A stretch of 64,000 bases of DNA from an uncultured cyanobacterium (GCA_963718615.1 OY970368.1:3104001-3168000); one strand, 5' to 3'; positions 307-61,080 are shown, counted from the stretch's first letter. Numbers and translations: made by a program. The notes: a model not told the origin generated them from the letters alone.

Positions 307-2025
307 ATGCTTCGTCAATCCATTTCAGCCAGTATTATCTTGCTTTGGGCCGGGGCGATCGCGACCATTGCTACCCCAGCCCAGGCCCAAACCCCGCTGA
401 CGCGGGCGATTGTTTCTTCGCTCCGCAATCGGGTGAAGTTTCTGCCCCAAGGACGACCCGCCAGAAGCGCCCAGCTTTCGGACGTGATGGTGCCAGGGGA
501 TGGTTTAGCCACGGCTCGTTCCTCGTTGGCGGAGCTGCGGTTTAATGATGGTTCTCTCGCGCGGATGGGGGAGCAGGCGGTCTTTCGCTTTGTGCCCCAG
601 TCCCGGAGCTTTCGCCTGTCCAATGGAACAGTCTTGCTACTGATTCCCCCCGGTCAAGGGCATACCCAGATCCGCACCCCCAACGTCACAGCAGGGATTC
701 GGGGCTCGGCACTCTTCGTTCGTTATGATGCGGCGACCCAGAAAACCTTGGTAGGAGCTTTGACCGATAGCGGCATTGAGGTCAGTAATGCCGATGGCAG
801 TCAGCGTCAGGTGTTAAAAGCGGGCCAGGTGGCGATGGCGGTGGGCGATCGCATTGTCGGTCTCTACGACTTTGACTTAGAAGTGTTTTATAACACCAGT
901 CCCCTCGTGGATGGACTAGAACTCAATCAATTAACACCAGTGAACAGTGAAGATGAGGCGATCGCTCAAGTGCGGGAAGAGACTCTCGCTGGTATCGCAC
1001 AGCAAAGTGAATTTGCCACGGAGACGGCAACAGGCCCCATTTTGGTTAATCCTGAATTTGTTTCCCTGACGGCTACGCCTGCGATCCCCGTGCCCAATGG
1101 CTCCGCTCTGGGTCAACCTTCACTGCCTGGTGTGAACGGTGTTCCAGTGGCATTGCCCGGTCAGGATACCCTAACCCAAACCCAGCCCAACTTCCCGGTT
1201 TGGGATGCAGGGATGCAGCCTGGGTCGACGATGCCTAGCGCGGGCAATGGTAGTAACTCGGGCTACGAACCCCCTACAGTTCCTGGGGTCGTTCCTGAAG
1301 TCCCTGCGGTCGTTACGCCGCCACCAATACCAGTGGTCGAACTGCCCACAACGCCCTTACCTGAAGTTGTTCAGCAGATCCCCGAGGTTCCCGTTGATAC
1401 CGGGATTCCCTCTACGCCCGAAGTGGTGGCTTTTCCAGAGGTTCCCCCAGGACCTGAGGGTTTGTCGGGTTTAACCCCCCCCGAAGTAGAAGCCTCAGCA
1501 CCGGAGGTTCCAGAAGTTCCAGAAGTTCCGGAAGTCCCCGAAACGTCAGTGACGCCAGAAATGCCTGAGGTGCCGGAAGTCCCCGAAACGCCAGTGACGC
1601 CAGAAATGCCTGAGGTCCCAGAAGTTCCTGAAACTCCTATTACCCCGGAGGTCCCCGAAGTGCCGGAAGTCCCTGAGGTACCGGAAGTCCCTGAGACGCC
1701 AGAAGTGCCGGAAGTCCCCGAAACGCCAGTGACGCCGGAAGTGCCGGAGGTCCCAGAAGTTCCTGAAACTCCTATTACCCCGGAGGTCCCCGAGGTGCCG
1801 GAAGTCCCTGAGGTACCGGAAGTCCCTGAGACGCCAGAAGTGCCCGAGGTGCCTGAAACGCCTGAAACTCCAGAAGTGCCGGAGGTTTCTCCCCCTTTTG
1901 TCCCCGAGGAGCCGACGACCCCTGAAGCTCCAGAGACTCCTACAGTTCCTGAAGTTCCAGAGACCCCCACAGTCCCACCGGAAACTCCTGTAGATCCTAC
2001 GGATATTTTGATCGATGTCCTCTGA
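307..2025 (+). CDS. FecR-domain secreted protein with long Pro/Glu/Val/Thr-rich C-terminal tail
   Basis: Signal peptide ending AQA; FecR-like segment ([19 protein letters not shown]...LSNGTVLL...[13 protein letters not shown]); C-terminal PEV/PET repeats. Confidence 0.85.
1495..1995 (+). repeat. Coding 9-bp (PEV/PET) tandem repeat with a 135-bp higher-order duplication
   Basis: gaagttcctgaaactcctattaccccggaggtccccga occurs at 1621 and again at 1756; dozens of CCN-GAR-GTN triplets. Confidence 0.9.
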
Positions 2026-2075
2026 TCCCCACTGAAAACGGCTCGAACACAGAGGACAAAAATGAGAACAAAAAC

Positions 2076-2100
2076 AAGGACAAAATGGCTTTTTGTCCTT
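2076..2100 (+). terminator. Hairpin between the FecR gene and the barrel gene (terminator-like or RNA-stabilising)
   Basis: aaggacaaaa-tggct-ttttgtcctt inverted repeat. Confidence 0.4.
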
Positions 2101-2147
2101 GTCTCTTTGCGCTAAACTGCCTGAGGCTGTAGCGCGCTCGGTTTCAC

Positions 2148-3422
2148 TTGGCCCTGGAGGGGGATTCGTTGAGACGAGATTTCTTAAACCACCATCGCTT
2201 ATGGTTCCTAGTTGGGTTGTGCCTGGGGATTGATTGGTTGTCTCTTCCGGCGATCGCCACGGAGCCGATTTCTAAACCTGATCCCATCCCATGCTTATCT
2301 ACCGTTCTCCTTGATGTCCATCAAGAGGATACCTGTCGAGATCATGAGATTCAATTCAGTGACACGGCGTTAGAAATTGGCTTGGATGAGCCCCTGCTCA
2401 ATCCTTCCAGTCCAGATGCACCCACCCCAGAGTCCCAGGCTCAAACCGCAGACACCGTAACCGACAGTGTTCCTACGGACCCCCTAGAAGACCCACTCAC
2501 GCCCTCGTTTCCAGAGTCGATTGAGCCGCCGGAAGAGCTGGCCCCGGAGGGAGAGAATCCAACGGAGCCTAGTCCTGGGGCGGAAAACAGTACACCCGAA
2601 GGCGAAGCTGGAGAAGAGACCGATGGCGACATGGGGAGCAGCGATTCAGGGGGTGATCCCGATCTGGGCACGCTTCGACTGAAGGAACGGGAGCTGTCGC
2701 TACAGCGACCTCCGATCCGGATTCCGGTTTATTTTTCACTTGACAGCAGCTACCTCAGCACCAGCAACACCCTGGCCAGCGAAAACTTTCTGGACGATCG
2801 CCTATTCCGTACAACAACCGCGTTGACGGTTTCGCCGATTTTGAACCGCAAAACCTTTCTGTTTGGCTCGGTGCAGGGTAGTGTGTATCGTTACGGTGAA
2901 CTCTCTCGCCTCGACTACAACGAATTGCGGCTGCAAGTGGGAGCCCGACGGGTGTTGTTTCCTCGGGTGGTGGGAGAACTGAGCTGGAGCAATCGGCAGC
3001 TGTATTTTCGGGAGAATGGCGATCGCTTCCTCAACGAACAGGCTTTGAGCCTGGGGATCTCCCGCCGTGATCCCCTCATGGAAAAAGTCTATGTAGATAG
3101 CTTTTACCGACTGCGGGCAGGATTTGCCGAGCCACAGACCAGCAGCCGAGTGGTGCAGATTTTGGGTTCTACCTTAAATTACGACGTTACCCGGCAGATC
3201 AATCTTTCGATCACGGGACTGGGGGTTTGGACGCAATATACCCAGCGCGATCGCCAGGACCTCTATGGTCAAGTTCTGGGCCGCCTGACCTATAAACTGG
3301 CAGACAATACCAAGCTTGGATTGTTTGCCGCCTGGGCTCAAGGGGAATCGTCGAGTCAGGGCGTTGATTTTGACAATACCCTCTTGGGGATTAGCTTTGA
3401 TACTAATATCAAGCTGTTTTAG
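2148..3422 (+). CDS. Outer-membrane beta-barrel protein with acidic Pro-rich periplasmic N-terminus
   Basis: Signal-like N-terminus, alternating amphipathic strands in the C-terminal ~230 aa, terminal Phe (ISFDTNIKLF). Confidence 0.7.
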   Translation: MALEGDSLRRDFLNHHRLWFLVGLCLGIDWLSLPAIATEPISKPDPIPCLSTVLLDVHQEDTCRDHEIQFSDTALEIGLDEPLLNPSSPDAPTPESQAQTADTVTDSVPTDPLEDPLTPSFPESIEPPEELAPEGENPTEPSPGAENSTPEGEAGEETDGDMGSSDSGGDPDLGTLRLKERELSLQRPPIRIPVYFSLDSSYLSTSNTLASENFLDDRLFRTTTALTVSPILNRKTFLFGSVQGSVYRYGELSRLDYNELRLQVGARRVLFPRVVGELSWSNRQLYFRENGDRFLNEQALSLGISRRDPLMEKVYVDSFYRLRAGFAEPQTSSRVVQILGSTLNYDVTRQINLSITGLGVWTQYTQRDRQDLYGQVLGRLTYKLADNTKLGLFAAWAQGESSSQGVDFDNTLLGISFDTNIKLF

Positions 3423-3441: not shown

Positions 3442-5019
3442 ATGGCTTCATCATCGCTTCTGCAACAGTTTCATCGCTGGCGGCTCGGAATGCTAGAACC
3501 CCTGCCCCTGGTCTTACCCAACCGGGCGGTGATCAACAAACGCTATCAAATCCTCTGTCAGCTCGGGCGAGGTGAGGTTGAACGTACCTACTTAGCGGAA
3601 GATTGGCACCACAAGAATCGCTGGTGTGTACTCAAGGAAATTGTGCCTCGCCTACTCAACCCTCGGATGTTGGCGGAGGGGCGGCGGCGGTTTGAGCAAG
3701 AGGTGTCGCTGCTGCGAGACCTGGAGCATCCGCAATTGCCCGCCTTTGGCGAGATGCTGGAATGTGAATTCGCTGGGCTGCATCGCTGGATCGTGGTGCA
3801 GGAATGGCTTGAAGGCATGAGCTATCTCGACTTGGTCAAAAGCCGTCCCTACCGTGAGGAGGAAGTCCTACGGTTTTTGCAGGAGGTGTTTCCAGCGCTG
3901 CATTATTTGCACCAGCAGGATCCACCGGTGATTCATGGCAACCTCTCGCCGGAGACGATTTTACACAGCAGCGAGATGGACAAGCCCATCTTGATTAACT
4001 TTGGCACGTTCAAACATATTGCCGCCCAGATTGCCGATCCCTTTGGTGACCCGGTGTCGCCAAGGCTGCGGCTGTATCGTCCGCCGGAGCAGTTTCGCGG
4101 TCATCTGAGTCCCTCGACGGATCTCTATGCCTTGGCGGTGACAGTGCTGACGCTGCTCACGGGCTGTCCGGATCCGCGAGAGTTTTATGATGCCAAACGG
4201 CGAGAATGGCGCTGGGCCAAACATGTGGCAGTGAGTGTGGGTTTCGTCGTGGTCCTAGACCGAATGCTTCAGGCCGATCCCAATCTTCGCTATCCCTCCG
4301 TGGCGGATGTCCAGGAAGCCTTGGCAGCCATTCATAGCCGTCGGCCAGTCCCGGTGCCTGAAGCGGTGGTGCTGTTATCCAGCCCAACTCAATCCCTAGG
4401 CTCTGCATCCCTAGGCTCTACATCCTTGGGTACTACCGCCACCGCTCCCTATCTTTTACCCCCGGCTCCGACGCTCACGACGCTCAACGCCACCCTCGCC
4501 ACAGGCTTCACGACAACCCTGACCACAACCGCCCAACAGCTTCAGGGGACCATTCACCAGGGCGGCACCTGGGTGGCGGCTGGGCTGCAGCGCAGTGGGG
4601 TGGGGGTGCGATCGCAGCTCCTAAAACTCAAACAAATCCCCCCCGACAAAGCCCTGAATGGCCTGCTGGGTCTCCTGTTCTGGGGCAGCATCCTAGGGTT
4701 TTTGGGGCTCAGTGGCTATGCCGGACTGCGGCTGGTTCACCGGCTCAAGCAAGATCCCGCTATCCAGGCGGTGACGGCGGCTCCGGCGGTGATCCGCTCG
4801 ACCTATTTGCCCGATGGTGACCTGGAAAGTTGCCACACCAACCTAGCTCAGCGCTATCTGAATTTATCTCAGCCCAGTTGGACTGAAGTGGATCAACGGT
4901 TTGCCGCTGCCTTTCCCGGATTTCCGGGGCCGATTGAAGCTCGTAATCCCGACCATGCGTTTTATTTGCAGGAATGGTGTTTTCTTGCGAATCAGTGGCT
5001 AGAAGACCAAGGGAATTAA
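3442..5019 (+). CDS. Membrane-anchored Ser/Thr protein kinase-like protein, probable pseudokinase
   Basis: Hanks-type fold (YQILCQLGRG, VLKE, LEHPQLP, PPEQ, TDLYAL) with degenerate HGNLSPET and NFG motifs; one TM helix near the C-terminus; start moved to ATG 3442. Confidence 0.85.
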   Translation: MASSSLLQQFHRWRLGMLEPLPLVLPNRAVINKRYQILCQLGRGEVERTYLAEDWHHKNRWCVLKEIVPRLLNPRMLAEGRRRFEQEVSLLRDLEHPQLPAFGEMLECEFAGLHRWIVVQEWLEGMSYLDLVKSRPYREEEVLRFLQEVFPALHYLHQQDPPVIHGNLSPETILHSSEMDKPILINFGTFKHIAAQIADPFGDPVSPRLRLYRPPEQFRGHLSPSTDLYALAVTVLTLLTGCPDPREFYDAKRREWRWAKHVAVSVGFVVVLDRMLQADPNLRYPSVADVQEALAAIHSRRPVPVPEAVVLLSSPTQSLGSASLGSTSLGTTATAPYLLPPAPTLTTLNATLATGFTTTLTTTAQQLQGTIHQGGTWVAAGLQRSGVGVRSQLLKLKQIPPDKALNGLLGLLFWGSILGFLGLSGYAGLRLVHRLKQDPAIQAVTAAPAVIRSTYLPDGDLESCHTNLAQRYLNLSQPSWTEVDQRFAAAFPGFPGPIEARNPDHAFYLQEWCFLANQWLEDQGN

Positions 5020-5232
5020 AGCAGAAGCTTCCAGAAAACCCCAATGCAGGCAAGGGTATTTTTGGCAACATACTTTTACAATTATTTTTGCTACCATAGG
5101 ACTAGTGAGGAAGCGTAAGGTCCTGGGAGCAGAATCGAACAACCCAGGGCTCACAGGATTGCTGGATGACTGATTACTGGATGACTGATTGTTGGATTAT
5201 TGATTGTTAAATCAATCCCGGAGGCTTTCGCC

Positions 5233-5679
5233 ATGGCACTCGCCAGACAGATTGAAACCTATGCCCTGGAAACAGTTCAAGGGGGAATGGCTCAGTTCTA
5301 TACACCTCAAGCCAGTGATGAAACGATGTTGGTGGAGCTACCGCCCCATGCCCAGGATGATTTGTTCGTGCATCGCTACCAAACCGATCAGTTATTCGTG
5401 GTGCGCGGCAGATTTGTCCTGGTGGTCCTAGAAAATCGGCGCTATCGCTACGTACCGATGCAGGCCGATGACCGGCAAATGGTGAAAATTCCGCCCGGTG
5501 TCCCCCATGGGGCGATTAACTTTAGCGATGAACCCTGTTTTGTCGTGAATGCAGTCCTGCGCCACGGCGATTCTCATCCCAAGGACTATCAACCGCTCAA
5601 GCGTCCCTTTGAGTATGACCGCGAGGCGGCTTGGCGATCGCTCACCGCCTACAGTGCCGAAACCGCCTGCGCTGCCTAA
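5233..5679 (+). CDS. Cupin-fold dTDP-4-dehydrorhamnose 3,5-epimerase-like protein
   Basis: Cupin motifs DDLFVHRYQTDQLFVV and KIPPGVPHGAIN. Confidence 0.7.
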   Translation: MALARQIETYALETVQGGMAQFYTPQASDETMLVELPPHAQDDLFVHRYQTDQLFVVRGRFVLVVLENRRYRYVPMQADDRQMVKIPPGVPHGAINFSDEPCFVVNAVLRHGDSHPKDYQPLKRPFEYDREAAWRSLTAYSAETACAA

Positions 5680-11206: not shown

Positions 11207-11388
11207 ACTGCGACTGAGCTAATCCTGATCTAGCCCTGAGCTACTATGGTGCTTTCACGTCATGCTTTAATGTTGTGCTTTCTTCATCCCAGCGCAGTGG
11301 CTACGATGAATTTATCGCCTATCTCAAAGCGCAGAGAATTTGGGATAGCGCGATTCTGATTCGCCAAGTTTTGCAGCGGTCGGTCCCC

Positions 11389-12222
11389 ATGACACTCTCG
11401 GAAAAACTGGCTCAAATCGATCGCCTCAAGGGCTGGCTCGATGCCTTTCGCCCACTCCCTGCGTCGGTCGTAGCGGAGTTGAAAGCCCTGTATGATGTGC
11501 GGTTTACGTACACCTCTAATGCGATCGAGGGAAACACGTTAACCCAAAGTGAGACTCAGCTTGTGTTGGAGCGGGGGATTACGGTGGGTGGGAAGAGTCT
11601 GACGGAGCATTTGGAGGTGGTTGGCCATAAGGAGGCGATCGACTATATCGAAGCCTTGGCACGGCAGGAGACAGCGATTGGAGAATGGGAGATTCGGCAA
11701 ATCCATAGTTTGATTCTGCGCAAGATTGCCCCAGAGGAAGCGGGCTGCTATCGACAGCTTGATGTCAGAGCAGCAGGAACGGAATATGTGTATCCGCCCC
11801 ATTATGCTGTGTCTGAGTTGATGGCGGAGTTTGTGGAATGGTTAGGGTCTGAAATGGTTCGGACGATGCATCCGGTTTGGCGCGCGACGGTGGCCCATGT
11901 AAAGTTTGTGTCGATTCATCCATTTCGGGAGGGTAATGGGCGAACAGGCCGGTTATTCATGAATTTGTTGCTGTTGCGATCGGGGTATCCGATTGTGGTG
12001 ATTAGCAATCGGGTTCGGCAGGCTTATATTGAGGCGTTGGTGGCAGCGCAGCAGGCTTCTGATTTGGAGCCGATGCTGGAGTTGGTTGCTAATGCGATGG
12101 AGGATGCGTTGATTGACCTGTTGCGGGGGGTGGCGACGGCGGGGGAGAGTCGCGGGAGGGGGTTGAGGTTTTATCGGGAGATGATGGAGATTTTGGATCA
12201 GGGGATGGGTTCGAATCCCTAG
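11389..12222 (+). CDS. Fic family protein (class II, N-terminal inhibitory helix)
   Basis: HPFREGNGRTGR Fic motif; SNAIEGN autoinhibitory motif; likely start ATG 11389. Confidence 0.92.
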   Translation: MTLSEKLAQIDRLKGWLDAFRPLPASVVAELKALYDVRFTYTSNAIEGNTLTQSETQLVLERGITVGGKSLTEHLEVVGHKEAIDYIEALARQETAIGEWEIRQIHSLILRKIAPEEAGCYRQLDVRAAGTEYVYPPHYAVSELMAEFVEWLGSEMVRTMHPVWRATVAHVKFVSIHPFREGNGRTGRLFMNLLLLRSGYPIVVISNRVRQAYIEALVAAQQASDLEPMLELVANAMEDALIDLLRGVATAGESRGRGLRFYREMMEILDQGMGSNP

Positions 12223-15200
12223 GATGTGATGAGGGCTTGGACTTCGTTGGCTTTTTCGGTGAGGTCTAGGTGTTGATAAAGGGCTAGGCTTTGGCTCAGG
12301 TATTGGCGGGCGGTTTGGGGGGCGTTGGGGTCGGTTTGGTTGGGATGTTGATAGATTTCGCCGAGGAGTTTGAGGGCGTCGGCTTGGTGTTTTTGGCGGT
12401 TGTAGGTTTGGAAGGTTTGGAGGGATTTTTGGGTGAGGGTGGTGGCTTGTGGGAGGTCTAGGAGGGCGGGGGTTTCGAGGTGGGCTCGGGCGATATCGAG
12501 GGTTTCTTCGGCGGCGATGAGGGTTTGGTTGAGGCTGGAGAAGAGGTTTAGGGCTTGGGTATAGCTGGTTTTGAATTGGCTGATGAGGGTTGGTGGGTTG
12601 GGGTCGTTGGGGGGGCGGTGGCGGAGTTGTTCGGCTTGGAGGAGGCTGAGGACGATGTGGTCGTAGGCGAGGTTTTCGGTGTATTGTTTTTGGGTGTTGA
12701 TTTGGAGGGCTTGTTGGAGGTTTTGTTGGGCTTGGGTGAGTTGGATGAGGGCGGTGTTTGGGTCGGGGGTTTGGTGGGCTTGTTGGCGTTGGGTGTTGGC
12801 GAGGCGTCTGAGTTGGCGGGCGAGGTTTTCTGAGTGGTCGAGTTTTTTATAGATGTCGTAACTTTGTTGATGATACTGGGCTGCTGTATCGTATTGTTTT
12901 TGTGCGGAGTAGATACTCCCTTGCTGTCGATACGAATCGGCAATGTCTAGCTTCTCGTCTAGCTTTTGACGAAGAGCCAAGTCTTGTTGTGCTGCTTCCA
13001 AAGCTTGCTCATACTTACCCCAGTCTCGATAGCTATCCGATATCCAATACCACTGGTTAGCAACCTTAGAATCTTTTCCTAACTGCTGATAGAGATCTCG
13101 GCTTTGGATGTATTGAGTGATCGCCTCTCCATACTTACTCCAGGCTTGATAGATTCTTCCCAATTGCCAATAAACAGCAGCAATTTCAGAAGAATCATCC
13201 AGCCGTTGACGAATCGCTAACTCCTGCTGCTGTGCTTCTAAGGCTTGCTCATACTTACCCCAATCTCGATAGCAAACTGATATCCGATACCACTGGTTAG
13301 CAACATCAGAATCTTTGCTTAACTGCTGATAAAGGTCTCGGCTTTGGATGTAGTGGCCGATCGCCTCTTCATACTTACTCCAGGCTTGATAGATTCTTCC
13401 CAATTGCCAATAAACAGCAGCAATTTCAGAAGAATCATCCAGCCGTTGACGAATCGCTAACTCCTGCTGCTGTGCTTCTAAGGCTTGCTCATACTTACCC
13501 CAATCTCGATAGCTATCCGATATCCAATACCACTGATTAGCAACATTAGAATCTTTGCCTAATTGCTGATAGAGATCTCGGCTTTGGATGTGGTGGGCGA
13601 TCGCCTCTTCATACTTGCTCCAGGATTGATAGATTCTTCCCAATCGCCAATAAGCAAGGGCAATTCCAGAGGAATCATCCAGCCGTTGACGAATCGCTAA
13701 ATCCTGCTGCTGTGCTTCTAAGGCTTGCTCATACTTACCCCAATCTCGATAGCTATCCGATATCCAATACCACTGATTAGCAACATTAGAATCTTTGCCT
13801 AATTGCTGATAGAGATCTCGGCTTTGGATGTGGTGGGCGATCGCCTCTTCATACTTACTCCAGGCTTGATAGATTCTTCCCAAGGCATAGTAAGCTCTAG
13901 CAACTCCAGAAGAATCATCTAGACTTTGATGAATCGCTAGATATCGCTGCATTGCTTCCAAAGCTTGCTCATACCTACCCCAGTCTCGATAGCTATCTGA
14001 TATCCAATACCACTGAGTAGCAACATTAGAATCTTTGCCTAACTGCTGATAGAGGTCTCGACTTTGGGTGTGGTGGGCGATCGCCTCTTCATACTTGCTC
14101 CACGCTTGGTAGATTCTTCCTAATCGCCAATAAGCAGTAGCAACCCCAGATGAATCATCCAGCCGCTGACGAATTGCTAACTCCTGCTGTGCTTCTAAGG
14201 CTTGCTCATACTTGCCCCAGTCTCGATAGCTATCCGATATCCAACCCCACATATTAGCAACATCAGAGTCTTTGCCTAACTGCTCATAGAGGTCTCGGCT
14301 TTGGATGTAGTGGCCGATCGCCTCTTCATACTTACTCCACTCTTGGTAGATTCTTCCCAATCGCAAATAAGCAAGGGCAACTCCAGAAGGAATCATCCAG
14401 CCGTTGACGAATCGCTGAATCCTGCTGCTCTGCTTCCAATGCTTGCTCATACTTACCCCAGTCTCGATAGCTATCCGATATCCAACCCCACATATTAGCA
14501 ACATCAGAGTCTTTGCCTAACTGCTCATAGAGGTCTCGGCTTTGAGTGTGGTGGGCGATCGCCTCTTCATACTTGCTCCAGGCTTGATAGATTTTTCCCA
14601 AGGCATAGTAAGCTCCAGCAACCCCAGAAGAATTATCTAGACTTTGACGAATCGCTAAACATTGCTGCCTTGTTTCCACAGCCTGCTCATACTTACCCCA
14701 ATCTCGATAGCAATCTGATATCCAAGCCCACTGATTCGCAACATTAGAATCTTTGCCTAATTGCTGATAGAGGTCTCGACTTTGGGTGTGGTGGGCGATC
14801 GCTTCTTCATACTTGCTCCACTCTTGGTAGATTCTTCCCAATCGCCAATAAGCAGTAGCAATTCCAGAAGGAATCATCCAGCCGTTGACGAATTGCTAAT
14901 TCTTGCTGCTGTGCATCCAATGCTTGCTCATACTTACCCCAGTCTCGATAGCAATCTGATATCCAATACCACTGATTAGCAACATTAGAATCTTTGCCTA
15001 ATTGCTGATAGAGGTCTCGACTTTGGGTGTGGTGGGCGATCGCCTCTTCATACTTGCTCCAGGCTTGATAGATTTGTCCAATTTGTCGATAAACACTAGC
15101 AATTTCAGAAGAATCATCCAGCCGTTGACGAATTGCTAACTCCTGCTGCTGTGCATCCAATGCTTGCTCATACTTACCCCAGTCTCGATAGCTATCCGAT

Positions 15201-18200
15201 ATCAAACACCACAGGTTAGCAACATTAGAATCTTTGCCTAATTGCTGATAGAGGTCTCGACTTTGGGTGTGGTAAGCGATTGCCTCTTCATACTTACTCC
15301 AGGCTTGATAGATTCTTCCCAATCGCCAATAAGCAGTAGCAATTCCAGAAGGAGTCTTCCAGCCGTTGACGAATTGCTAACTCCTGCTGCTGTGCATCCA
15401 ATGCTTGCTCATACTTACCCCAGTCTCGATAGCTATCCGATATCAAACACCACAGGTTAGCAACATTAGAATCTTTGCCTAATTGCTGATAGAGGTCTCG
15501 ACTTTGGGTGTGGTAAGCGATTGCCTCTTCATACTTACTCCAGGCTTGATAGATTCTTCCCAATCGCCAATAAGCAGTAGCAATTCCAGAAGGAGTCTTC
15601 CAGCCGTTGACGAATTGCTAACTCCTGCTGTTCTGCTTCCAAAGCTTGCTCATACTTGCCCCAGTCTCGATAACTATCCGATATCCAATACCAGAGATCT
15701 GCAACATTAGAGTCTTTGCCTAACTGCTGATAGAGGTCTCGACTTTGGGTGTAGTGGGCGATCGCCTCTTCATACTTATTCCAGGCTTGATAGATGCTTC
15801 CCAATTGCCAATAAGCAGTAGCAATTCCAGAGGAGTCTTCCAGCCGTTGACGAATTGCTAAATCCTGCTGTTCTGCTTCCAAAGCTTGCTCATACTTACC
15901 CCAATCTCGATAGCAAGCTGATATCCAACCCCATAGATTAGCAACATCAGAATCTTTGCCTAACTGCTGATAGAGGTCTCGACTTTGGGTGTGGTGGGCG
16001 ATCGCTTCTTCATACTTGCTCCAGGCTTGATAGATTTGTCCAATTTGTCGATAAACACTAGCAATTTCAGAAGAATCATCCAGCCGTTGACGAATTGCTA
16101 ATTCTTGCTGCTGTGCATCCAATGCTTGCTCATACTTACCCCAGTCTCGATAGCTATCTGATATCCAATACCACTGGTTAGCAACATTAGAATCTTTGCC
16201 TAATTGCTGGTAGAGGTCTCGACTTTGGGTGTAGTGGGTGACTGCCTCTTCATACTTACTCCAGGCTTGATAGCTTCGGGCAAGGTGCCAAAAGAGATAA
16301 GCCTCAGCCTTAAGGTTCTGAGCTTGTTGAGCAATAGCAATAGCCTGCTGAAAGCACTGTAGGGATTCTGCGTATCTACCATGAGATCTGTAACAAACAC
16401 CCCGATATCTCCATAAAATTAACTGCTCAGCAGAATCCGAATCAACATTCAATTTATCCGAACATTGCTGATAATATTGCAAGCCTTGATCATAATCATC
16501 TTTCTTCTCATAGGCAATCGCAATTGCCCACTCTACAAATCCACCAAAATAGCAATTATCCTCATCCACCAGCAATTCCAACCGCTCCAGCGCCCGATCA
16601 TAATGATCTGCCCTCAAATACGATAGGGAGGCTACAAACACCAAGCATCGACGATCATCAGAATCAAAATACCCTAAATCTAATGCTCGCTCCAGCACCG
16701 GGCTCATCTCCGCACCCAATTCTGCCATCAAGTCTCGTATATCACCAAACAATGAAGGCGTAAGGTGCTGCATAACCTCCACAACTCGTTCTGCCAACAA
16801 TTCTTCCGAATTACCACAAGCCACATACAACATCGCTACCCAAGCTCGGTTCCGCTGCTCAGTCGAAAGCTGTCGGTTCTCCACCGCCTGCTGCAATCGC
16901 CCCCAAACCTGATGATTAAAAGCTTCAATCCCCCGCAATCGCTGCAAGAGTTGCTTAACGGGCTCTTTACTAAATCCCTCATCTAACCCCAAATAAGTCA
17001 ACACCAACCTGTCAACCTGCCTAGCACAAAACGTTGACAACACCCGCACTTCAGCCAATATCTGTCCCACAAACAGCAAATCTTGCCACAGCCCCTCCGA
17101 CTCCCGTATCGCACTTTCTGATTGCGAATACCACAATAGAATCGGATTATCGCTCCCAGAATTCTGAAGGCGAATCTCTTGCCCTAAAATATTCGGCTGA
17201 TACTCTGATAAATTACGAAATAACTGCTCCAAAAGGCGATTGGTTCGTTTCTGGTCAGCACTTAAATACCCGAGCGCCAACAAAATCGGCTCATTCCACC
17301 GGGCCTGATTGCGATAGGGACCAATAATCTCCAAAATTTCACTAATCTCATTATCCGCAATCTGCCGAGCCGCAAAATACTCCTCAAACGTCAGATGCAT
17401 AAACCCATACATCTCCGGAGCCCGCTCCACAAATAGCCCCGTCGTCTCCCGCACCTTCCGCAAAAACTGCCGCACTAACTCCAGCGCAGCCTGCTCATCC
17501 ACCCCCTGCAATTCCATCATGTGCGGCGTCAGCCATCGCTCAACCTCCCCCTGGGCCACAATCCCCGAAGGCTTCTCCTCATGCATCCGCAGCGCCAGCG
17601 GAGCCAAAAGCGCCGTTACCTCTTCCTCCACCAACATCAACTGCCGATGTCTAGCCTGATAAGGAATATTGCGGCCAAGCTGCCAATCCTCAATCAACGT
17701 CTTTGCCGCCAATTGATAGAGCTCCACCCGACGCTGGGGCAACCGCGTACCATTGCGATGGATCAGCGCCAAAATCGTCAAAAGCAAAGGATTCGCTGCA
17801 AATCGCCTCACCCCTTGATTGCTCGAAATTTCCTGCACAATCTCTTGGGCTTCCCGATCCGCATCCCGCTGTTGTCGCTCCGCCTCAACCTCTGGCCGCT
17901 GCGCGATTTCGACCGCCAAACACCAACGCCTCAGGAATTGCTCAATCTGTTCATCCCCCATGGGCGTAATCGTAAATTCTCGAAACCGGCTTCCCAACGC
18001 AGCCTGCTTGTACCCCGCAATCCGACTTGTAACCACAAACTTGTTATTACGATACTCATCAACCAATCGATTAATGTGTTGAACAACCTGCACCCGATTG
18101 TCTTGATCAAACACCTCATCCAATCCATCCAGCAAAACCAAACAATCCCCTGTCGCCATTCGGTTCAGCAGCAGATTCGCCACAGAATCCCCATCCGTAG

Positions 18201-19347
18201 CCTCAAAACGGTGCTCCCACTGGCGATAAAATTGCTGGAGATAATCTACCAGGCTCAACTCTGGCGTATCAGTCAACCGTTCCGCATAGTCCGCAATCCG
18301 AAACAGAATGGGCAACCGCATATCTCCCAGTTCTTCTTCTTTCCCCCCTACCACGGTGGAGAGACGATCCCGCTGAGCCAAGGCAAAATGCCTTGCTAAG
18401 TAGCGCAGCAACGTCGTTTTCCCAGCCCCCGGATCACCCAAAATCACGCAATAGGTGTGCTTACGCACCGCCTCCGCCAGATCCACCACCTTCGTCACTC
18501 GCTGTTGCCGAGTATCAGACTCAACAGGACGCTCAAGCGTTATTTCCTGTTTCAATGCTCCAACGAGCTTAAGCGGTGATTTTCTACCTGGCTCTAAACT
18601 CTCTTCCCATTCACTTGCCCCTGAACCCACAGCCCCATTTATCGGGCTCAGATTCACGGGCGACTCTACTGCAACAATCTGTTCTTTGAAAGACTGGCTT
18701 CGCTTTTCCTCCCAGGAGCCCTGTAGTGATACATAAATTTGATCTAGGGAAATATCAACCTGCCGATTGACCTGCATGACCCCACTGACCCTCAGCCGTG
18801 AGTTTTCTGAGATTAGCCATTCCAAATAGGGATATAGCAACGGATCAAGCTGAGGACGTGTCGTAAAGATCGCGACTTTGCCCCGCCAATCCCAAAAGTC
18901 TGCAGCCCGTCGCCGAAACTCCTCTAAAAAAGACTCTCGATTCAGCCAAAAGACCAAAATCAAACCCTGCTCAAAAATTCGCTCTCTCCCCAAATTGAGC
19001 TGTTCCATTTCCTGCCGAAGCAAATCAGGCCGGAGCTGCTCTAAGCCAAAGGCCATCACAATTCGGCGTGTCGGGTTAGTCTTTGCTGAATCGGCTGGCA
19101 ATTGATGTAGAAAGTTAAATAATGAATCCTCGCTGTAATGAAACGTCAAAAAATGAAATTCATTTTCTAACTGCTGGATCTCTATCTTAAACGCCTGGGA
19201 AACAGGATGATCTGGAGCACTATCCGGTGTAATTGCAAACAGCGTCAAGCTCCGCTCGCTCATGGCTACAGCATTGACTAATTTAGCCAACTCGTCCCGT
19301 TCTTCGGCATCAAGAAGATGTAGATGATTTTCCGATTGAGTCATCAT
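12219..19347 (-). CDS. NACHT-TPR (NLR-like STAND) protein, ~2374 aa if four +1 frameshifts are removed; split into 5 ORFs as given
   Basis: ILGDPGAGKTT Walker A, LLDGLDEV Walker B, NPLLLT, GFMHLTFEEYFAA; 28 near-identical TPR motifs; 7129 nt minus 4 extra bases = 7125 nt, in frame. Confidence 0.88.
12960..16272 (-). repeat. Tandem array of 14 x ~240-bp units, each encoding two TPR motifs (80 aa)
   Basis: Unit YQAWSKYEEAIAHHTQSRDLYQQLGKDSNVAxxWxxISxxYRDWGKYEQALEAQQQELAIRQRLDDSS recurs every 237-241 bp. Confidence 0.97.
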
Positions 19348-20639
19348 CAGTTCTCCCCATTCATAGAGCGCCAGCGTTCCAAATCGATAGCCAAAATTGG
19401 ATTAATATCAAACCATCGGCCTTGCTCAGGATCCTGATACCCCAAGACTAACTTATTGTGCAGAAGTTCATCGCAGATCACAACCTTGCCATATTTAGGG
19501 GAATCAAAGGAATTCGTGGTCAATTGCCCTGTTTTTTTGACCGTATTCAGCTCCGGAAACTGATAATCTTCAACCGTATAGCCTTGCCGCTCCTCTCGTA
19601 CAGCATCTTGGGCTAGGGCGAGGCTGATTTCGCTACTTTTTTTACGTAGGGCCACTTCTCCAGAGGTTCGTGCCAGACGGACCAGATCGCGCATTACCCC
19701 CCCACTTGTCTCACAAAGCAGATTCAAGGCATCAGGATGGAACAGGTTTCTGAAGGTCGGCTCCAGCGTTCCCAACCTCTTCTGAATCACCGTTGTTAGA
19801 ATATGTCGTCCAACTCGATCTGACTCATGGGTTGGTCGTGCGTGATCATCACATTTAAAAACCGGGATATTAGATAAGTCTAGGCATTTATCAAAGCTCT
19901 GCATTGGCTGCCTAAATGCCGAGGAATAACGTAATGAGATCGGAATTGCATAAACGATATGACAGTTTAGATCAGTCATCAAAGAACTAGAGAACATCTC
20001 TAGTGCAATCCCAAAATCTTTTCTATCCAAACCATCTACAATCACCAAGAGCTTTGGCTTATTCTGCTCTGCCACCGCAATGATTTCGTTAACCTTCGCA
20101 ACAATTTCACCTATTGCTGGACGAACTTCACGAGTCGCTGTTGTTTCTCGTTGAAACCCAACCTTTAACAGCAGTCCTAAGTCTTTAAAAAGCTTTGGCA
20201 ATTCTAGCTGTCCACCACCAGTAACTTTGTCTTGATAGGTGATACGCGCTAGACTCGTTAGTAATTCCTGCTCTAGCTTCCGAGGTAGCCTCCACCCAAG
20301 CTTTGTGAGCTGTTGGACAATTTGTAACCCAATCAGAACAACTACTTCCGCATAACCAATATTGTATTTGTCTAGAGCTGTGTCAGTGTCCACCCAGACA
20401 ACGGTGTAGTCTGAGACACATTTTTGTTCGAGTCGCCGTAGCTCTGTCGTTTTTCCACCTCCCCGATGACCCGCCAGCAGAAACTTTGCCGCTCCATCAT
20501 CCATTGCCAGAAGTTCTATGAGACTATCGACTGGACTATCCTCTCGACGTACATAAAAATCTCGTAACTCTCTGTCTATCAACGGTTCATCGGGCTTAAA
20601 GAGCTGATAGACAGGGGTCCAAAACTTAAGATCACTCAT
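19347..20639 (-). CDS. P-loop (AAA+/STAND-like) ATPase, translationally coupled to the NACHT-TPR gene
   Basis: LLAGHRGGGKTTEL Walker A, LLVIVDGLDR Walker B, SGGVMRDL; stop overlaps next start (TGATG). Confidence 0.88.
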   Translation of the reverse strand: MSDLKFWTPVYQLFKPDEPLIDRELRDFYVRREDSPVDSLIELLAMDDGAAKFLLAGHRGGGKTTELRRLEQKCVSDYTVVWVDTDTALDKYNIGYAEVVVLIGLQIVQQLTKLGWRLPRKLEQELLTSLARITYQDKVTGGGQLELPKLFKDLGLLLKVGFQRETTATREVRPAIGEIVAKVNEIIAVAEQNKPKLLVIVDGLDRKDFGIALEMFSSSLMTDLNCHIVYAIPISLRYSSAFRQPMQSFDKCLDLSNIPVFKCDDHARPTHESDRVGRHILTTVIQKRLGTLEPTFRNLFHPDALNLLCETSGGVMRDLVRLARTSGEVALRKKSSEISLALAQDAVREERQGYTVEDYQFPELNTVKKTGQLTTNSFDSPKYGKVVICDELLHNKLVLGYQDPEQGRWFDINPILAIDLERWRSMNGEN

Positions 20640-20786: not shown

Positions 20787-21362
20787 ATGGTCGTCACCAT
20801 CAACCTCCAGCCAACCCTTGAGTTAACCGACGTGCAGTTCGAACAGATCTGCCACCAAAATCGTGACCTAAAATTTGAGCGCACCGCCAAAGGAGGATTG
20901 GTCATTATGTCCTTAACAGGGGGCGAGACTGGCGAACGTAATGCTGAGATCAACGGCCAACTGTGGCTTTGGAATCGCCAAGCCCGTCTTGGTCACATCT
21001 ATGACTCCTCCACAGGCTTTCGGTTACCCAACGGAGCCATTCGCTCGCCCGATGCCGCCTGGATCAGCCAACCTCGCTGGGAAGCCCTCACCCCTCAACA
21101 ACGTCAACGCTGGGTGCCGCTTTGTCCTGATTTTGCCGTGGAATTGAAGTCCCCTTCCGATGACATTGAAGACTTGCGGATCAAGATGCGGGAATATCTC
21201 GAAAATGGCTTGCAATTGGGTTGGTTAATCGACCCAGAGAGCCAAATCGTAGAACTGTATCGAGCCGATCAAGCCGTTGAAATTTTGAGCCATCCAGAAA
21301 CCCTTTCCGCAGAAGAACTGATGCCGGGGTTTGTTTTAAGTTTGGTTGGAATTCTAGAGTGA
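20787..21362 (+). CDS. Uma2 family (PD-(D/E)xK-like) endonuclease
   Basis: FERTAKGGLVIM, DSSTGFRLPNGAIRSPDAAW, PLCPDFAVELKSPSD, LGWLIDP. Confidence 0.95.
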   Translation: MVVTINLQPTLELTDVQFEQICHQNRDLKFERTAKGGLVIMSLTGGETGERNAEINGQLWLWNRQARLGHIYDSSTGFRLPNGAIRSPDAAWISQPRWEALTPQQRQRWVPLCPDFAVELKSPSDDIEDLRIKMREYLENGLQLGWLIDPESQIVELYRADQAVEILSHPETLSAEELMPGFVLSLVGILE

Positions 21363-21443: not shown

Positions 21444-23648
21444 TTAGCCCAGGGGATTGAGTCCTGGATCAGTGACCCAGAAAGAACCATCAATTCCTGC
21501 CAAGTCAGAGTCAGCGGTCGATGACAGGATTGCCTGTCCGCCTAAACTGTTTCCCTGAATCTCTACCTCCACCGCACGGTCATAACGACTATCGATCAGC
21601 GGTTGTGTGAGCATTACACCACCATCAAAATTCGCACGGAACTGGCCAGCCAACAGGAAGATATCATCGGTTGTACCAGTGCTTGGATCGAAATCAGAAT
21701 CGATCGCGTCATTAACGCCCACATTGGCCTGGGTAAGCTCGTATCCTGCAGGCAATCCCTCGATCGCAACCCTGTATTGCCCTGCAGCAAGGTTGCTAAA
21801 GCCATAGAAGCCCTCAGCGCCCGTCGTTTGGGTCCGAATGAGATCATCAGCAGTATTGAATTGTGCATCTGCCCCAGCCCCGCGCAGCGTGACCTGCGCG
21901 CCCGCAAAACCGCCTTCATTGACATCGTGCAGGCCATTGCCATTTTCATCGAAAAAGACACGGTTGCCGATAAAACCCGTTTTGGGATCAACCTTACCCG
22001 GTGTGGAGACCACGCCCGCATCAATATCGGCACGAAACTGACCGGCTGACAGGGTGATCGGCTCTGTCATGCCACTGTTGGGATCAACGTCTGAATCCAG
22101 GGCGTCGTTATTGCCCACATTGGCATAGGTGAGCTGAAAGCCTTCCGGCAGGCTGTCGATAGAGATTTTGTATTGTCCCGCAGCCAGATCGCTGAATCCG
22201 TAAAACCCTTTTTGCGCTGTGGTTTGGGTCTGGACAATATCGTCTTCCGTGTCAAAGAGATTATCCGTTCCAGCGCCCCGCAGAGTTACCCTTGCCCCTG
22301 CAAATCCCTCTTCATTGCCGTCATAAAGACCATTGCCATTGGCATCGAAAAAGACCCGGTTGCCGATGAAACCCGTTTTGGGATCTACGGCAGGTCCTGC
22401 CTGTTGGACAACACCGGCATCAATATCGGCTCGAAATTCTCCAACTTCCAGCGTAATTTGTTCACTGATACCGCTACTGGGGTTAAAGTCAGAATCGATC
22501 GCATCATTGCCGCCCACATTGGCTTGGGTCAGTTGAACCTCTTCCGGCAAATTATCAATCGCAATTTGATATTGACCAGCAGCCAGATCGCCAAAACCAT
22601 AGAATCCCTCAGCCCCGGTCGTTTGGCTCCGAACTAAATCGTCATTGGTGTTGAATAAACCATCAGCACCAGCGCCCCGTAGGGTTACCCGTGCTCCGGC
22701 AAAACCGCCTTCGTCCGTATCCAAAAGACCGTTGGCATTGGCATCCAGAAAAACCCGGTTGCCGATGAAACCGGTCTTAGGATCAATCTTTTCCGGAGTG
22801 GTCACAACGCCTGCATCGATATCTGCGCGAAACTGGCCCGCCGAGAGTGTGATCACATCTGTCAAGCCACTGTTCGGATCAACATCCGAATCAAAGGCAT
22901 CGTTGTTGCCCACATTAGCTTGGGTTAGTTGGAAGCCTTCGGGTAAGTTGTCAAGGGAAATGGTATATTGCCCCGCCGCCAGATTGTCAAACCCATAAAA
23001 GCCCTGCTGACCTGTGGTTTGGGTCCGAATGACATCATCCGCCGTTTCAAACAGACCATCGGCACCCGCACCCCGCAGGGTTACCTGTGCGCCTCCAAAG
23101 CCTTCTTCGTTCTCATCAAAAAGACCATTGCCGTTTTTATCCAAAAAGACTCGGTTGCCGATGAAACCAGTCTTAGGATCGACTAGTGGACCTGTCTGTT
23201 GGACGACACCCGCATCAATATCAACCCGGACTTGATTATCCGCTAAGTTGATAATCTCTGTCTCACCTGTGAGCGGATCAATGTCAGAATCAATCGTGTT
23301 GTTATTGCCCACCTTTGCATGGGTTAGCTGAAACCCTTCGGGCAGATTATGGATAGAGATTTTGTATTGTCCACCCGCGAGATCGCCGAAACCATAAAAG
23401 CCTTGGGAGTTTGTATTTTGGGTTCGAAGAATATCATCATCAGTATTGAAGATTCCGTCTGCTCCAGCGCTCTGTAGCGTGACTTGGGCTCCAGCAAAGC
23501 CGCTTTCATTGGCTTCGTGCAGGCCATTGCCATTTTCGTCGAAGAAGACACGGTTGCCAATAAAACCGAGGGGAAGAAGAGTCAGTTCTGAGCTTTGATT
23601 GCTTTCAATATTCTGAAAGAGAGAAGAGCTGGTCGTGAATGAAGTCAT
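21444..23648 (-). CDS. SdrD B-like (Cna-B) repeat surface protein, 5 domains
   Basis: Five ~134-aa repeats GFIGNRVFxDxNGNGL...T..T...GFYGF.DLAAGQY...N.G.ND..DSD...DIDAGV. Confidence 0.9.
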   Translation of the reverse strand: MTSFTTSSSLFQNIESNQSSELTLLPLGFIGNRVFFDENGNGLHEANESGFAGAQVTLQSAGADGIFNTDDDILRTQNTNSQGFYGFGDLAGGQYKISIHNLPEGFQLTHAKVGNNNTIDSDIDPLTGETEIINLADNQVRVDIDAGVVQQTGPLVDPKTGFIGNRVFLDKNGNGLFDENEEGFGGAQVTLRGAGADGLFETADDVIRTQTTGQQGFYGFDNLAAGQYTISLDNLPEGFQLTQANVGNNDAFDSDVDPNSGLTDVITLSAGQFRADIDAGVVTTPEKIDPKTGFIGNRVFLDANANGLLDTDEGGFAGARVTLRGAGADGLFNTNDDLVRSQTTGAEGFYGFGDLAAGQYQIAIDNLPEEVQLTQANVGGNDAIDSDFNPSSGISEQITLEVGEFRADIDAGVVQQAGPAVDPKTGFIGNRVFFDANGNGLYDGNEEGFAGARVTLRGAGTDNLFDTEDDIVQTQTTAQKGFYGFSDLAAGQYKISIDSLPEGFQLTYANVGNNDALDSDVDPNSGMTEPITLSAGQFRADIDAGVVSTPGKVDPKTGFIGNRVFFDENGNGLHDVNEGGFAGAQVTLRGAGADAQFNTADDLIRTQTTGAEGFYGFSNLAAGQYRVAIEGLPAGYELTQANVGVNDAIDSDFDPSTGTTDDIFLLAGQFRANFDGGVMLTQPLIDSRYDRAVEVEIQGNSLGGQAILSSTADSDLAGIDGSFWVTDPGLNPLG

Positions 23649-28600: not shown

Positions 28601-29716
28601 ATGTCACATTCATTTCGCGATATCCAGGGCATCATTGATGATCTCAATCGGTCGCGCTCAGTGTACAAGAGCTTCACGGATCAGATTCTGTCATCGACAT
28701 CAGGCATTAACGCGATTCAAGAGTCTCTAGCCGCCCAAAGAGCACTTGACCGTAGCCTTCTCGCATCAGCGACATCAGCTCTCGCCACAGTAAATCTCCC
28801 CGATTACACAAGTAACATTCGCGATCTAGTTTCCGCTAACAAGACACTGACCGACATTGTCTCACAGGCGTCAATTGCCGACTCAGCGATGTCTAAGATT
28901 TTTGCTGAGCACAACGTACTGCGAAAATCATTGGCTTCAATCGCCTCTCTTCGTTCGACAACCGAGCCTTTGGCATCATTTGATACCAGTCGCTTACTCT
29001 ACACTTCGCTCAGCAGTCAGGTTCGGCTTCTTGACTTGGAGACGCATTCTTTCGGGAACTTAATTGGCGCAACAAATTTATTTACCAATGACCTCGCGGC
29101 GACATTCAGTAAACTTACCAGTTCGTATCGCGATGTGATCGAGTCTATCCCAAAGATTTCCAAGCAGTTAGTTCCGTTTGTTGCAACGTATGCACCGATT
29201 GAATACGCCCTTGAACTTGATGTCATTGAAGGTATTACAGTTGAAGACGACGAAGCTCAAGACCTCGAACCGCTACCGTCAGTTGACGACGAACTGGCAT
29301 CATTTGATGAACGTCTTCTCGCTCTTCTGAAAGGTGCAAGACAGTCGTTGGATTCAGATAACCCAGAAAAGGCTCGTCACGTTACAACGTCGGTTCGTGA
29401 GTTTTTTACTCATATTCTTCACGAACTCGCCCCCGACCACGAAATAAACCAATGGACAACTGACGCCTCTTATTATCACAACGGTCGCCCGACACGTCGT
29501 ACACGCTTGCTCTTCATCTGCCGAACTTTCTCGTGCGATCCCCTTACAAAGTTCATCGAACATGATGTTCAGGCTGCGCTCACTCTGGTAGATTCGCTCA
29601 ATGCTGGTACACACGCGATCGAGTCCAAGCTCACGCAACCTCAACTTCAGGCAATCGTATATCGCATGGAATCTCTAGCGTTATTCCTGCTCAAAGTATC
29701 ACGAGGTGGTGGTTAA
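28601..29716 (+). CDS. Integron cassette ORF 1: helical N-terminus plus C-terminal HEPN-like predicted nuclease (resembles pPIWI-associating nuclease domain)
   Basis: GARQSL..DNPEKARH...SVRE....ILHELAPD...GRPTRRTRL...LNAGTH motif set; no HIP1 sites. Confidence 0.6.
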   Translation: MSHSFRDIQGIIDDLNRSRSVYKSFTDQILSSTSGINAIQESLAAQRALDRSLLASATSALATVNLPDYTSNIRDLVSANKTLTDIVSQASIADSAMSKIFAEHNVLRKSLASIASLRSTTEPLASFDTSRLLYTSLSSQVRLLDLETHSFGNLIGATNLFTNDLAATFSKLTSSYRDVIESIPKISKQLVPFVATYAPIEYALELDVIEGITVEDDEAQDLEPLPSVDDELASFDERLLALLKGARQSLDSDNPEKARHVTTSVREFFTHILHELAPDHEINQWTTDASYYHNGRPTRRTRLLFICRTFSCDPLTKFIEHDVQAALTLVDSLNAGTHAIESKLTQPQLQAIVYRMESLALFLLKVSRGGG

Positions 29717-52728: not shown

Positions 52729-52755
52729 CAACTACAAAGTAGGACTACAGCAGCA

Positions 52756-53319: not shown

Positions 53320-53331
53320 GCGAGGAAGGCC

Positions 53332-54522: not shown

Positions 54523-54530
54523 AGAAAATC

Positions 54531-61061: not shown

Positions 61062-61080
61062 CTCTAATTCAGTCAAGAAA

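Follow-up and report, generated by a model that had tools for sequence, protein, structure and literature searches.

How does an NLR-like protein (one resembling the nucleotide-binding, leucine-rich-repeat immune receptors) pass on a signal when it carries no recognisable effector of its own? The question is raised by a locus in a 64,000-nt stretch of DNA from an uncultured cyanobacterium (GCA_963718615.1 OY970368.1:3104001-3168000), the whole of which is called the window here and supplies the coordinates below. On its minus strand, a 430-aa open reading frame (ORF) for a P-loop ATPase (19347..20639) is followed by a 1270-aa ORF (15535..19347), the first and longest piece of a sensor gene, and the TGA of the former shares one base with the ATG of the latter (TGATG). 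The architecture of the two genes and a predicted docking of their products make it reasonably probable that they form a two-component NLR-like conflict module with a pseudo-ATPase adaptor; the direction of signaling and the output are proposed with less assurance. The 1270-aa ORF runs from an N-terminal domain of ~170 aa (the N-domain) through a linker, a NACHT NTPase domain and a helical region into the first eight units of a tetratricopeptide repeat (TPR) array. A sequence-only reading of this DNA had reported the ATPase, the stop-start overlap, an alpha/beta domain of ~165 aa with the motifs discussed below and no Walker A, an intact NACHT module and at least 28 TPRs, and each of these was found, the N-domain containing no GxxxxGK[ST]. 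It had also joined the sensor into a single protein of ~2374 aa, a length reached only by discounting four extra bases. That observation is therefore only partly confirmed, since the sensor gene is frameshifted in this genome.

By its sequence, the sensor is placed in the NACHT clade of STAND NTPases. Residues 299-475 (17923..18453, minus strand) score 42.1 bits against PF05729 with a cut-off of 26.7, and their Walker A (GDPGAGKTT) and Walker B (LLDGLDE) follow the NACHT signature of GxxxxGK[ST] and D[GAS]hDE given in the accessible portion of the preprint by Kibby et al. (10.1101/2022.07.19.500537).

What kind of domain, then, precedes the NACHT? No family in Pfam, NCBIfam or PADLOC matches sensor residues 1-275; with the N-domain as query, a PDB profile search gave 0 matches at E<=1, and the best ESM Atlas score, 0.81, was to clusters named "hypothetical protein". 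In an alignment of 43 sequences the N-domain (residues 1-175; 18823..19347, minus strand) conserves the motifs LNLGRE and RAxDFWDWR, the loop after strand 1 reads (A/T)P(D/E)SxPxHP, and no invariant or near-invariant columns form GK[ST], leaving no functional Walker A lysine. The AlphaFold2 (AF2) model of residues 1-220 made with these 43 sequences has a mean predicted local distance difference test score (pLDDT) of 73, with residues 11-160 at 82-92 apart from ~62 at 81-90, and shows a strand-helix topology repeated five times. Foldseek matched the model to RFC, clamp-loader, ORC and Hda chains (E 1.2e-5 to 5e-4, probability 1.0), and VIA-align aligned it to the ORC chain 7jgr_C with Z 11.4 (156 residues aligned, root-mean-square deviation (rmsd) 3.8). 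All 50 entries listed by VIA-align have Z >= 8.7; we take most of them to be AAA+ or STAND-type modules, recognised as such rather than by a check of each row's fold. The fold matches include chains that are presumably nucleotide-dead AAA+ cores, such as Sir3 (3te6), clamp-loader delta (1jqj_C) and Orc2/3 (5uj8). Taken together, the model and its matches point to a degenerate five-stranded AAA+ core that lost its P-loop, a putative pseudo-ATPase adaptor. The inactive P-loop-like N-terminus of the sequence-only reading is thus borne out at the level of predicted fold, sequence comparison giving it no support, and the domain resembles AAA+ cores rather than a known effector. EACC1 was considered as an identity for the N-domain and rejected, being a single-transmembrane domain in the available text of Kaur et al. 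2020 (PMC7159879).

An alignment of 47 relatives shows no variation in three motifs of the partner ATPase: its Walker A (GHRGGGKTTE), its Walker B (LVIVDGLDR) and SGGxxR. The AF2 model from this alignment (pLDDT 86, predicted template modelling score 0.86) shows an AAA+ core that contains a helical insert (roughly residues 96-193), then a lid, and a winged helix at the C-terminus. Archaeal Cdc6/Orc1 proteins are its best Foldseek matches (2qby_A at E 4.5e-8, then 1fnn_A and 2v1u_A). VIA-align gave Z 16.8 to Cdc6 7jgr_G (249 aligned, rmsd 3.2), Z 16.1 to TnsC, Z 15.6 to 2qby_A over residues 6-427 and Z 15.3 to the archaeal ATPase PABY2304, with plant NB-ARC modules at Z 12-13.5 and RADAR RdrA at about Z 11. 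The PDB sequence profile search gave nothing significant (only zeta toxin at E 0.056, treated as noise), and the likeness to Cdc6/Orc1 is one of fold only. As modelled, the ATPase is a Cdc6/Orc1-like AAA+ protein with a lid and a winged helix.

Family models all leave the ATPase below threshold, whether nSTAND_NTPase5 (PF25199; 24.1 bits with a cut-off of 34, over residues 38-94 only) and AAA_16 (21.3 bits, cut-off 32.6) in Pfam or the Sll1717-family P-loop ATPase (NF047389; 18.2 bits, cut-off 75) in NCBIfam; it matched 0 PADLOC families, and the Pfam scan found no enzymatic effector domain in it. Precomputed labels assign PF25199 to some of its homologues and PF07693 to several Nostocales orthologues; KAP_NTPase gave no match to the window ATPase at E<=0.01, and one paralogue (L089:8238-9530) scores 25.7 against 20. 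Of 8000 candidates that were scored, 277 are relatives at E<=1e-3; the 120 best listed are 56-100% identical and mostly 424-440 aa long.

Do the two proteins meet? In a controlled complex prediction, the ATPase and N-domain residues 1-180 were paired with their own alignments and set against three controls. The interface score ipSAE was 0.68 (runs 0.69, 0.68 and 0.61) versus 0.00 for the best of the 3 controls; the mark of 0.68 is reached by 58 of 80 solved complexes and by 2 of 110 mismatched pairs, counts that are rough with user-supplied alignments. Across the runs at least 73% of contacts recur, and the pLDDT of the partner is never below 77. On the ATPase side the predicted interface comprises the N-terminal helix 4-17, P-loop residues 59-60, residues 206-208 just past Walker B and residues 317/321 in the SGGxxR helix. 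On the N-domain side it comprises helix 18-33, residues 115-125 (LNLGRE) and 139-160 (RAxDFWDWRGK), with 118-123 and 153-158 inside it; R121 of LNLGRE and R155 of DFWDWR both fall within it, and the arginines of GRE and WR were present in all four distant members read. In AAA+ assemblies, a neighbouring protomer donates an arginine finger on the nucleotide-pocket face. The adaptor is predicted to dock on that face of the ATPase, and its two superfamily-conserved arginine motifs may occupy the position of the arginine-finger donor. Of the hetero-oligomerisation with the ATPase that the sequence-only reading had put forward, contact between the two proteins agrees with the complex prediction, which is the sole source of its support.

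Is the pairing peculiar to this genome? Both proteins have hundreds of close homologues, so the pair is not a chance feature. A scan with the ATPase, one genome per species, gave 219 stretches encoding a relative, and 79 loci were kept, 78 titled cyanobacteria and one "uncultured bacterium". A tblastn search with the N-domain gave matches in 71 of the 79 loci; in 70 the match lies directly downstream, on the strand of the ATPase and no more than 1.5 kb from it, with the NACHT region next. Of the remaining nine loci, four stop at a contig edge, L061 carries its sensor gene upstream, L062 is a degraded remnant, and L024, L032 and L063 have downstream sequence but no sensor gene. Elsewhere, intact sensors span ~1050 to 2460 aa and the ATPase-sensor gaps ~10 to 1400 nt, the one-base overlap not being general, and broken or truncated copies are frequent. 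All 120 near-length N-domain homologues listed carry NACHT, most with TPR families and one with an extra N-terminal kinase. The distribution of the orthologue is patchy: the window ATPase has one (E<=1e-120) in 8 of 401 sampled genomes of the phylum. When flanking ORFs were clustered, the two pair genes occurred in 78 and 56 loci and the next two clusters (29 and 23 loci) were antisense ORFs inside the sensor; other sense-strand neighbours reached at most 17 of the 79 loci. Those with a Pfam match are an actin-like ALP, a GFO/IDH/MocA oxidoreductase, QueC, CNNM, PGM and Ham1, several others having none, and the recurrent neighbours reflect subgroup synteny.

The pairing also reaches far beyond close relatives. 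When 1.84 billion representatives were searched with an N-domain profile, 422 proteins matched at E<=1e-3, of which 44 reached <=1e-10 and 19 reached <=1e-30. Distant relatives were scanned with Pfam for 35 of the 150 listed: fifteen carry NACHT (11 with HEAT, one with FGE-sulfatase, one also with TIR, one with a kinase), twelve are N-domain and TPR only at 400-550 aa, NB-ARC-TPR, RES and TPR/HEAT with EAD7 occur once each, and five have no family. The window's genome, a single contig of 6.10 Mb, has two N-domain matches besides that of the sensor, and a divergent ATPase paralogue immediately precedes each, so that 3 of 3 adjoin an ATPase-family gene; both of these partners are N-domain-TPR proteins without NACHT (665 and 713 aa). 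In five other genomes, where ATPase-family matches number 4 to 20 each with fragments included, 14 of 15 N-domain matches closely follow such a match on the same strand. Among 20 more loci with an ATPase paralogue, the next ORF downstream opens with an N-domain match at E<=0.01 in 13 and with a weaker N-terminal match (E 0.02-0.36) in four; the last three comprise one convergent N-domain gene and two loci without any. Eight of 13 scanned partners at these loci are proteins of 1250-1700 aa with WD40 propellers, and nSTAND1 is among the matches listed for four of the 13, the 25 matches listed for the others being propeller families. Furthermore, 80 of the 401 phylum genomes have an N-domain-type match to P0304, a RES-fused N-domain protein used as query, and all seven loci returned have an ATPase homologue immediately upstream. 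P0304 itself had no relative in a metagenome scan (119 patterns matched), and the RES fusion was not found in the 401 genomes, which gave N-domain relatives and separate RES-only ORFs.

The pair is accordingly a member of a large, mostly cyanobacterial family of two-gene cassettes whose adjacency holds across very distant paralogues and differing downstream architectures, and the layout recurs in filamentous cyanobacteria. Where the partner has TPRs only, the ATPase and the adaptor-sensor amount to a split STAND protein; the window version interposes a NACHT switch. The survey of gene-pair conservation that the sequence-only reading had called for thus favors its interpretation, which is largely supported with two amendments: the frameshifts and, since NACHT is absent from many partners, a coupling of the ATPase to the N-domain rather than to the NACHT itself.

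Several loci met in this survey depart from the common layout. At L109 (G001:C1:5341096-5349876), a 902-aa ORF (112..2820, plus strand) carries an ATPase-family module at residues 464-890, preceded by an N-terminal part in which TPR motifs occur; an N-domain partner was not detected in its vicinity, and the locus may be a fused variant of the cassette. The N-domain gene of L099 (G005) is convergent with the ATPase instead of downstream, and L100 (G004) has a second N-domain match (3..662) past the first partner gene; in both, cassettes may have been rearranged or stand in tandem. In the window's genome, the second ATPase/N-domain-TPR pair (L088; G000:C1:3185000-3198000) has a DDE transposase gene directly downstream (3773..5266, minus strand; Pfam 460 bits) and mfd on its other side.

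Can the copy in the window itself be functional? Its TPR array (12993..16277, minus strand) is a tandem repeat of a 240-bp unit (80 aa, two TPRs) in 13.7 copies with 88% matches, the units sharing 82-100% DNA identity; 31 forty-residue TPR-like units were counted in the sensor gene, the first 8 within the 1270-aa ORF. The gene lies in five ORF pieces, namely 15535..19347, 15294..15563, 14807..15322, 14332..14877 and 12219..14504, the last encoding 761 aa from its first ATG with more TPR units and a helical tail. The breaks are caused by four +1 frameshifts, each one extra T (TCCTCTGGA becoming TCCTTCTGGA) at an identical position of the repeat unit, frameshifted units reading TCCTTCTGG and intact ones TCCTCTGG. 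On the minus strand they fall at 15590..15591, 15349..15350, 14868..14869 and 14387..14388, in units starting at 15618, 15377, 14896 and 14415. The first two units are exact tandem duplicates (241 nt, 100% identical), to which the third is 87.6% and the fourth 86.3% identical; the third and fourth are ~85-88% identical to them and to one another. Repeat-landmark spacing is 121 instead of 120 at the four places, the 1270-aa ORF stops 20 codons past the first frameshift, and 2374 aa arises from 7129 nt minus 4. Unless the frameshifts are assembly errors, the window copy as written encodes the ATPase and a sensor of no more than 1270 aa, which has 8 TPR units. Two public sequencing runs hold 5-6% of the locus's sampled words, and no RNA run is listed. 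Programmed +1 frameshifting at TCC-UUC-UGG was considered and rejected: under known slippage rules no tRNA re-pairing fits, and four serial sites would be expected to leave almost no full-length product.

There is an even chance that the locus in this genome is a decaying pseudogene without current function, whatever the family does elsewhere. The four frameshifts fit decay, and since a frameshifted 241-nt unit was later duplicated exactly, the array kept recombining after the break; the other long genes of the window are intact, which argues against poor overall base accuracy. Set against decay, the ATPase and the first 1270 sensor codons are intact and 72-85% identical to their nearest relative, intact homologues of 1050-1400 aa exist, and every downstream fragment opens in the restored frame. 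The same insertion in three unit backgrounds could moreover be a repeat-specific consensus error: the shared extra T fits such an error, and it fits one insertion spread by duplication and short-tract conversion.

How might an undamaged pair work? Gene 1 would supply a minimal Cdc6/Orc1-like AAA+ ATPase, and gene 2 would open with the ~170-aa pseudo-ATPase adaptor, here placed before an active NACHT switch and a fast-diversifying TPR array. The array would bind a non-self or perturbed-self ligand, the NACHT would oligomerise, and the clustered adaptors would engage ATP-bound ATPases, thereby completing, licensing or nucleating an assembly. The winged-helix ATPase would then give the output, most plausibly either by acting on DNA with its winged helix and helical insert or by turning over ATP. 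Such logic would have analogies in sensor NLRs that nucleate a helper and in the capping of active clamp-loader or ORC subunits by inactive ones. As to function, we infer that a conflict or immune role is the most likely, the output being inferred as well. Toward it point the near-identical, recombining repeat units (82-100% DNA identity), the expansion of paralogues to as many as 20 ATPase-family matches in one genome, the fusions of N-domains with RES, TIR, FGE-sulfatase, EAD7 and kinase, the patchy orthologue (8 of 401 genomes) and the frequency of broken copies.

Several observations weigh against this two-component conflict module. Binding of the N-domain to the ATPase is a predicted one, and AAA+ heteromers are well represented among solved structures, so that the favorable prediction may partly reflect likeness to them. 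In a comparison of the N-domain and ATPase profiles, hhalign gave a probability of 0.5% and no similarity; the AAA+ assignment of the N-domain therefore rests on the predicted fold. No effector domain was recognised by Pfam in the sensor, the last 761-aa fragment included, the pair has no PADLOC match, and the sensor gene is broken in this genome by its four frameshifts. No third conserved gene appeared among the clustered flanking ORFs of the 79 loci, and the flanks of the window locus and of orthologous loci are mostly housekeeping genes in subgroup synteny, not a clear defence island. Finally, the ATPase is unusually conserved for a defence gene, with 57-85% identity across orders.

Some of these facts suit other explanations. 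A 1:1 docking on the ATP pocket, as predicted, would fit a cap as well as a nucleator, and an ATPase without an enzymatic effector domain could be a restraining or resetting chaperone that binds the adaptor and keeps the sensor off, or that disassembles active oligomers, the output coming from the sensor oligomer; this opposite polarity is compatible with the same data. AAA+ chaperones that act as threshold switches in conflict systems of multicellular bacteria are described in the available text of Kaur et al. 2020 (PMC7159879), and threshold setting by TRIP13-HORMA or MoxR-vWA offers an analogy. With such a chaperone the output is still missing, the sensor too being without an effector. Furthermore, TPR-only partners have no oligomerising NTPase of their own, and therefore the ATPase must be the switch in those pairs; restraint is a conceivable but rather unlikely role. 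Housekeeping flanks with subgroup synteny, the strong conservation of ATPase, N-domain and NACHT, the lack of a toxin-type effector in the Pfam scan and the winged helix on an ORC-like fold would instead suit a non-immune regulator of transcription, replication or development in filamentous cyanobacteria, in which the winged-helix ATPase stands under a TPR/NACHT sensing partner in the manner of the STAND regulators MalT or AfsR. Such a regulator would have to be reconciled with an orthologue in 8 of 401 sampled genomes, many paralogues per genome, recombining near-identical repeat units, related N-domains fused to RES, TIR and FGE-sulfatase, and copies that are often broken or truncated, and it is judged unlikely.

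The two genes might also be mere neighbours, an ordinary bacterial NACHT-TPR protein with an uncharacterised N-terminal effector beside an unrelated ATPase. Gaps of ~10 to 1400 nt in place of the one-base overlap at other loci are what mere neighbours might show; adjacency over distant paralogues and four downstream architectures, together with a complex prediction that passes its controls, makes this a very improbable account. The preferred two-component module can also be read more broadly. In that tentative extension, a possibility held with limited confidence, the pseudo-AAA+ N-domain and the Cdc6/Orc1-like ATPase would define a large unnamed superfamily of helper-dependent NLR systems in multicellular cyanobacteria. 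Dead-ATPase adaptors of diverse sensors (NACHT-TPR, NACHT-HEAT, NACHT-FGS, nSTAND1-WD40, NB-ARC-TPR and bare TPR) would nucleate or license a cognate ORC-like ATPase, whose DNA-directed or ATP-consuming activity would be their shared output.

Bacterial NLR-like proteins are usually described as single polypeptides with their own effector. This cassette has no recognisable effector and has an obligately linked second ATPase, with which a domain mimicking an ATPase protomer appears to make the contact. Should the docking be real, it gives a simple, testable model of one NOD-type switch handing its signal to another, accounts for the many giant "effector-less" STAND proteins with TPR, WD40 or HEAT repeats in filamentous cyanobacteria, and makes the pseudo-AAA+ core a new type of adaptor beside EAD and Death-like domains. 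The ATPase and N-domain also serve as a marker pair for hundreds of genes labelled "tetratricopeptide repeat protein" or "hypothetical protein". The value lies more in a superfamily-wide rule than in the damaged copy of the window; were the superfamily reading true, prokaryotes would have their own version of sensor/helper NLR logic, assembled from parts like those of replication initiators.

The surroundings of the pair in the window hold genes of several kinds. Converging on the end of the sensor gene is a Fic-domain protein (11275..12222, plus strand) with the motif HPFxEGNGRxGR and PADLOC scores of 111 bits to SoFic and 105 bits to PDC-S04, possibly a stand-alone defence or toxin gene. A Uma2-family putative endonuclease (20787..21362, plus strand; Pfam 151 bits, weak PADLOC PDC-S03 matches) diverges from the ATPase gene, and next to the locus lies a 734-aa protein (21444..23648, minus strand) with five SdrD B-like repeats (425 bits), probably of surface or adhesin type. 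Farther off, a protein at 28601..29716 (plus strand) carries a C-terminal pP_pnuc_1 domain, a predicted pPIWI-associating nuclease (96 bits). The region ~51500..63400 (plus strand), with a guanine-cytosine content of 33-40% compared with ~50-56% elsewhere in the window, is a polysaccharide or O-antigen-type cluster of six glycosyltransferases, two hexapeptide transferases, a methyltransferase, a Wzy-like ligase and an epimerase/dehydratase, probably acquired horizontally.

Does the cassette belong to a system that already has a name? In PADLOC 2.0 the sensor has 8 matches of 13-44 bits, of which those at residues ~276-337 cover the Walker A stretch only and the rest lie in the repeats. Among NCBIfam models EruA scores 39.7 bits against a threshold of 1000 and DS8 22.7 against 790, and no bNACHT, Avs or EruA model matched past the P-loop. 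Literature on "nSTAND5" and "Sll1717" gave nothing relevant. A 2026 survey of 589 STAND clades mentions no such pair in its accessible portion; its supplements, like those of Kibby and of Kaur 2020 and 2021, may list the clade, and within these bounds the pair is undescribed in PADLOC 2.0 and the literature searched. The view of the sequence-only reading that this is not a named defence system holds to that extent, with no PADLOC family for the ATPase and P-loop- or repeat-level matches alone for the sensor. The cassette looks like an undescribed NLR-like/STAND conflict system with paired NTPases.

bNACHT and Avs proteins share with the window sensor a central STAND NTPase and a C-terminal repeat sensor such as TPR, and both kinds are abundant and paralogous in cyanobacteria. 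They are, according to the accessible portion of Kibby et al. (10.1101/2022.07.19.500537), single genes with an N-terminal enzymatic effector or an EAD, Death-like or winged helix-turn-helix adaptor, and none of the N-terminal effectors and adaptors listed there for bacterial NACHT proteins is AAA+-like. The window sensor, in contrast, begins with a predicted pseudo-AAA+ core and is obligately linked to an ATPase that has a gene of its own. A STAND-like module that is nucleotide-dead is also used by the iSTAND and iSTAND2 ternary systems, which are conflict systems of multicellular bacteria; the available text (PMC7159879, PMC8195603) defines them by the pairing of a MoxR AAA+ with a vWA protein, neither of which is in the window neighbourhood, where the genes near the pair encode Fic, pentapeptide, MutS2, Uma2 and SdrD_B proteins. 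Closer is the nSTAND2 two-gene system, for which the accessible part of Kaur et al. 2021 (PMC8195603) describes adjacent active and eroded STAND-type NTPases and a proposed arginine-finger hetero-multimer, both partners being full nSTAND2 modules and the inactive one carrying GT4 or HEPN effectors. In the cyanobacterial pair, however, the inactive part is modelled as a ~170-aa AAA+ core on a protein with its own active NACHT (in other members nSTAND1, NB-ARC or no such domain), its active partner is Cdc6/Orc1-like, and Pfam finds no GT4 or HEPN domain in the sensor. The nSTAND2 system is thus the nearest concept, built from different modules.

There are parallels outside bacterial immunity as well. 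Clamp-loader delta and delta', Orc2/3 and Sir3 are P-loop-dead AAA+ cores that pack against an active neighbour. The dead core here is likewise predicted to lie over the nucleotide pocket of its active partner; those proteins are parts of replication or silencing machines, whereas this one is fused to an NLR-type sensor. In sensor/helper NLR pairs, such as NAIP-NLRC4 or plant sensors with their NRC helpers, a ligand-binding NLR is coupled to a second NOD-type ATPase, and fungal NLRs carry near-identical TPR, WD or ANK repeats that recombine. The cyanobacterial cassette shares the coupling of a sensor to a second ATPase with the former and the highly similar, recombining repeat units with the latter. 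Unlike the helpers of sensor/helper NLRs, its own has neither effector nor sensor, and the two would be coupled through a pseudo-ATPase adaptor rather than by NOD-NOD templating.

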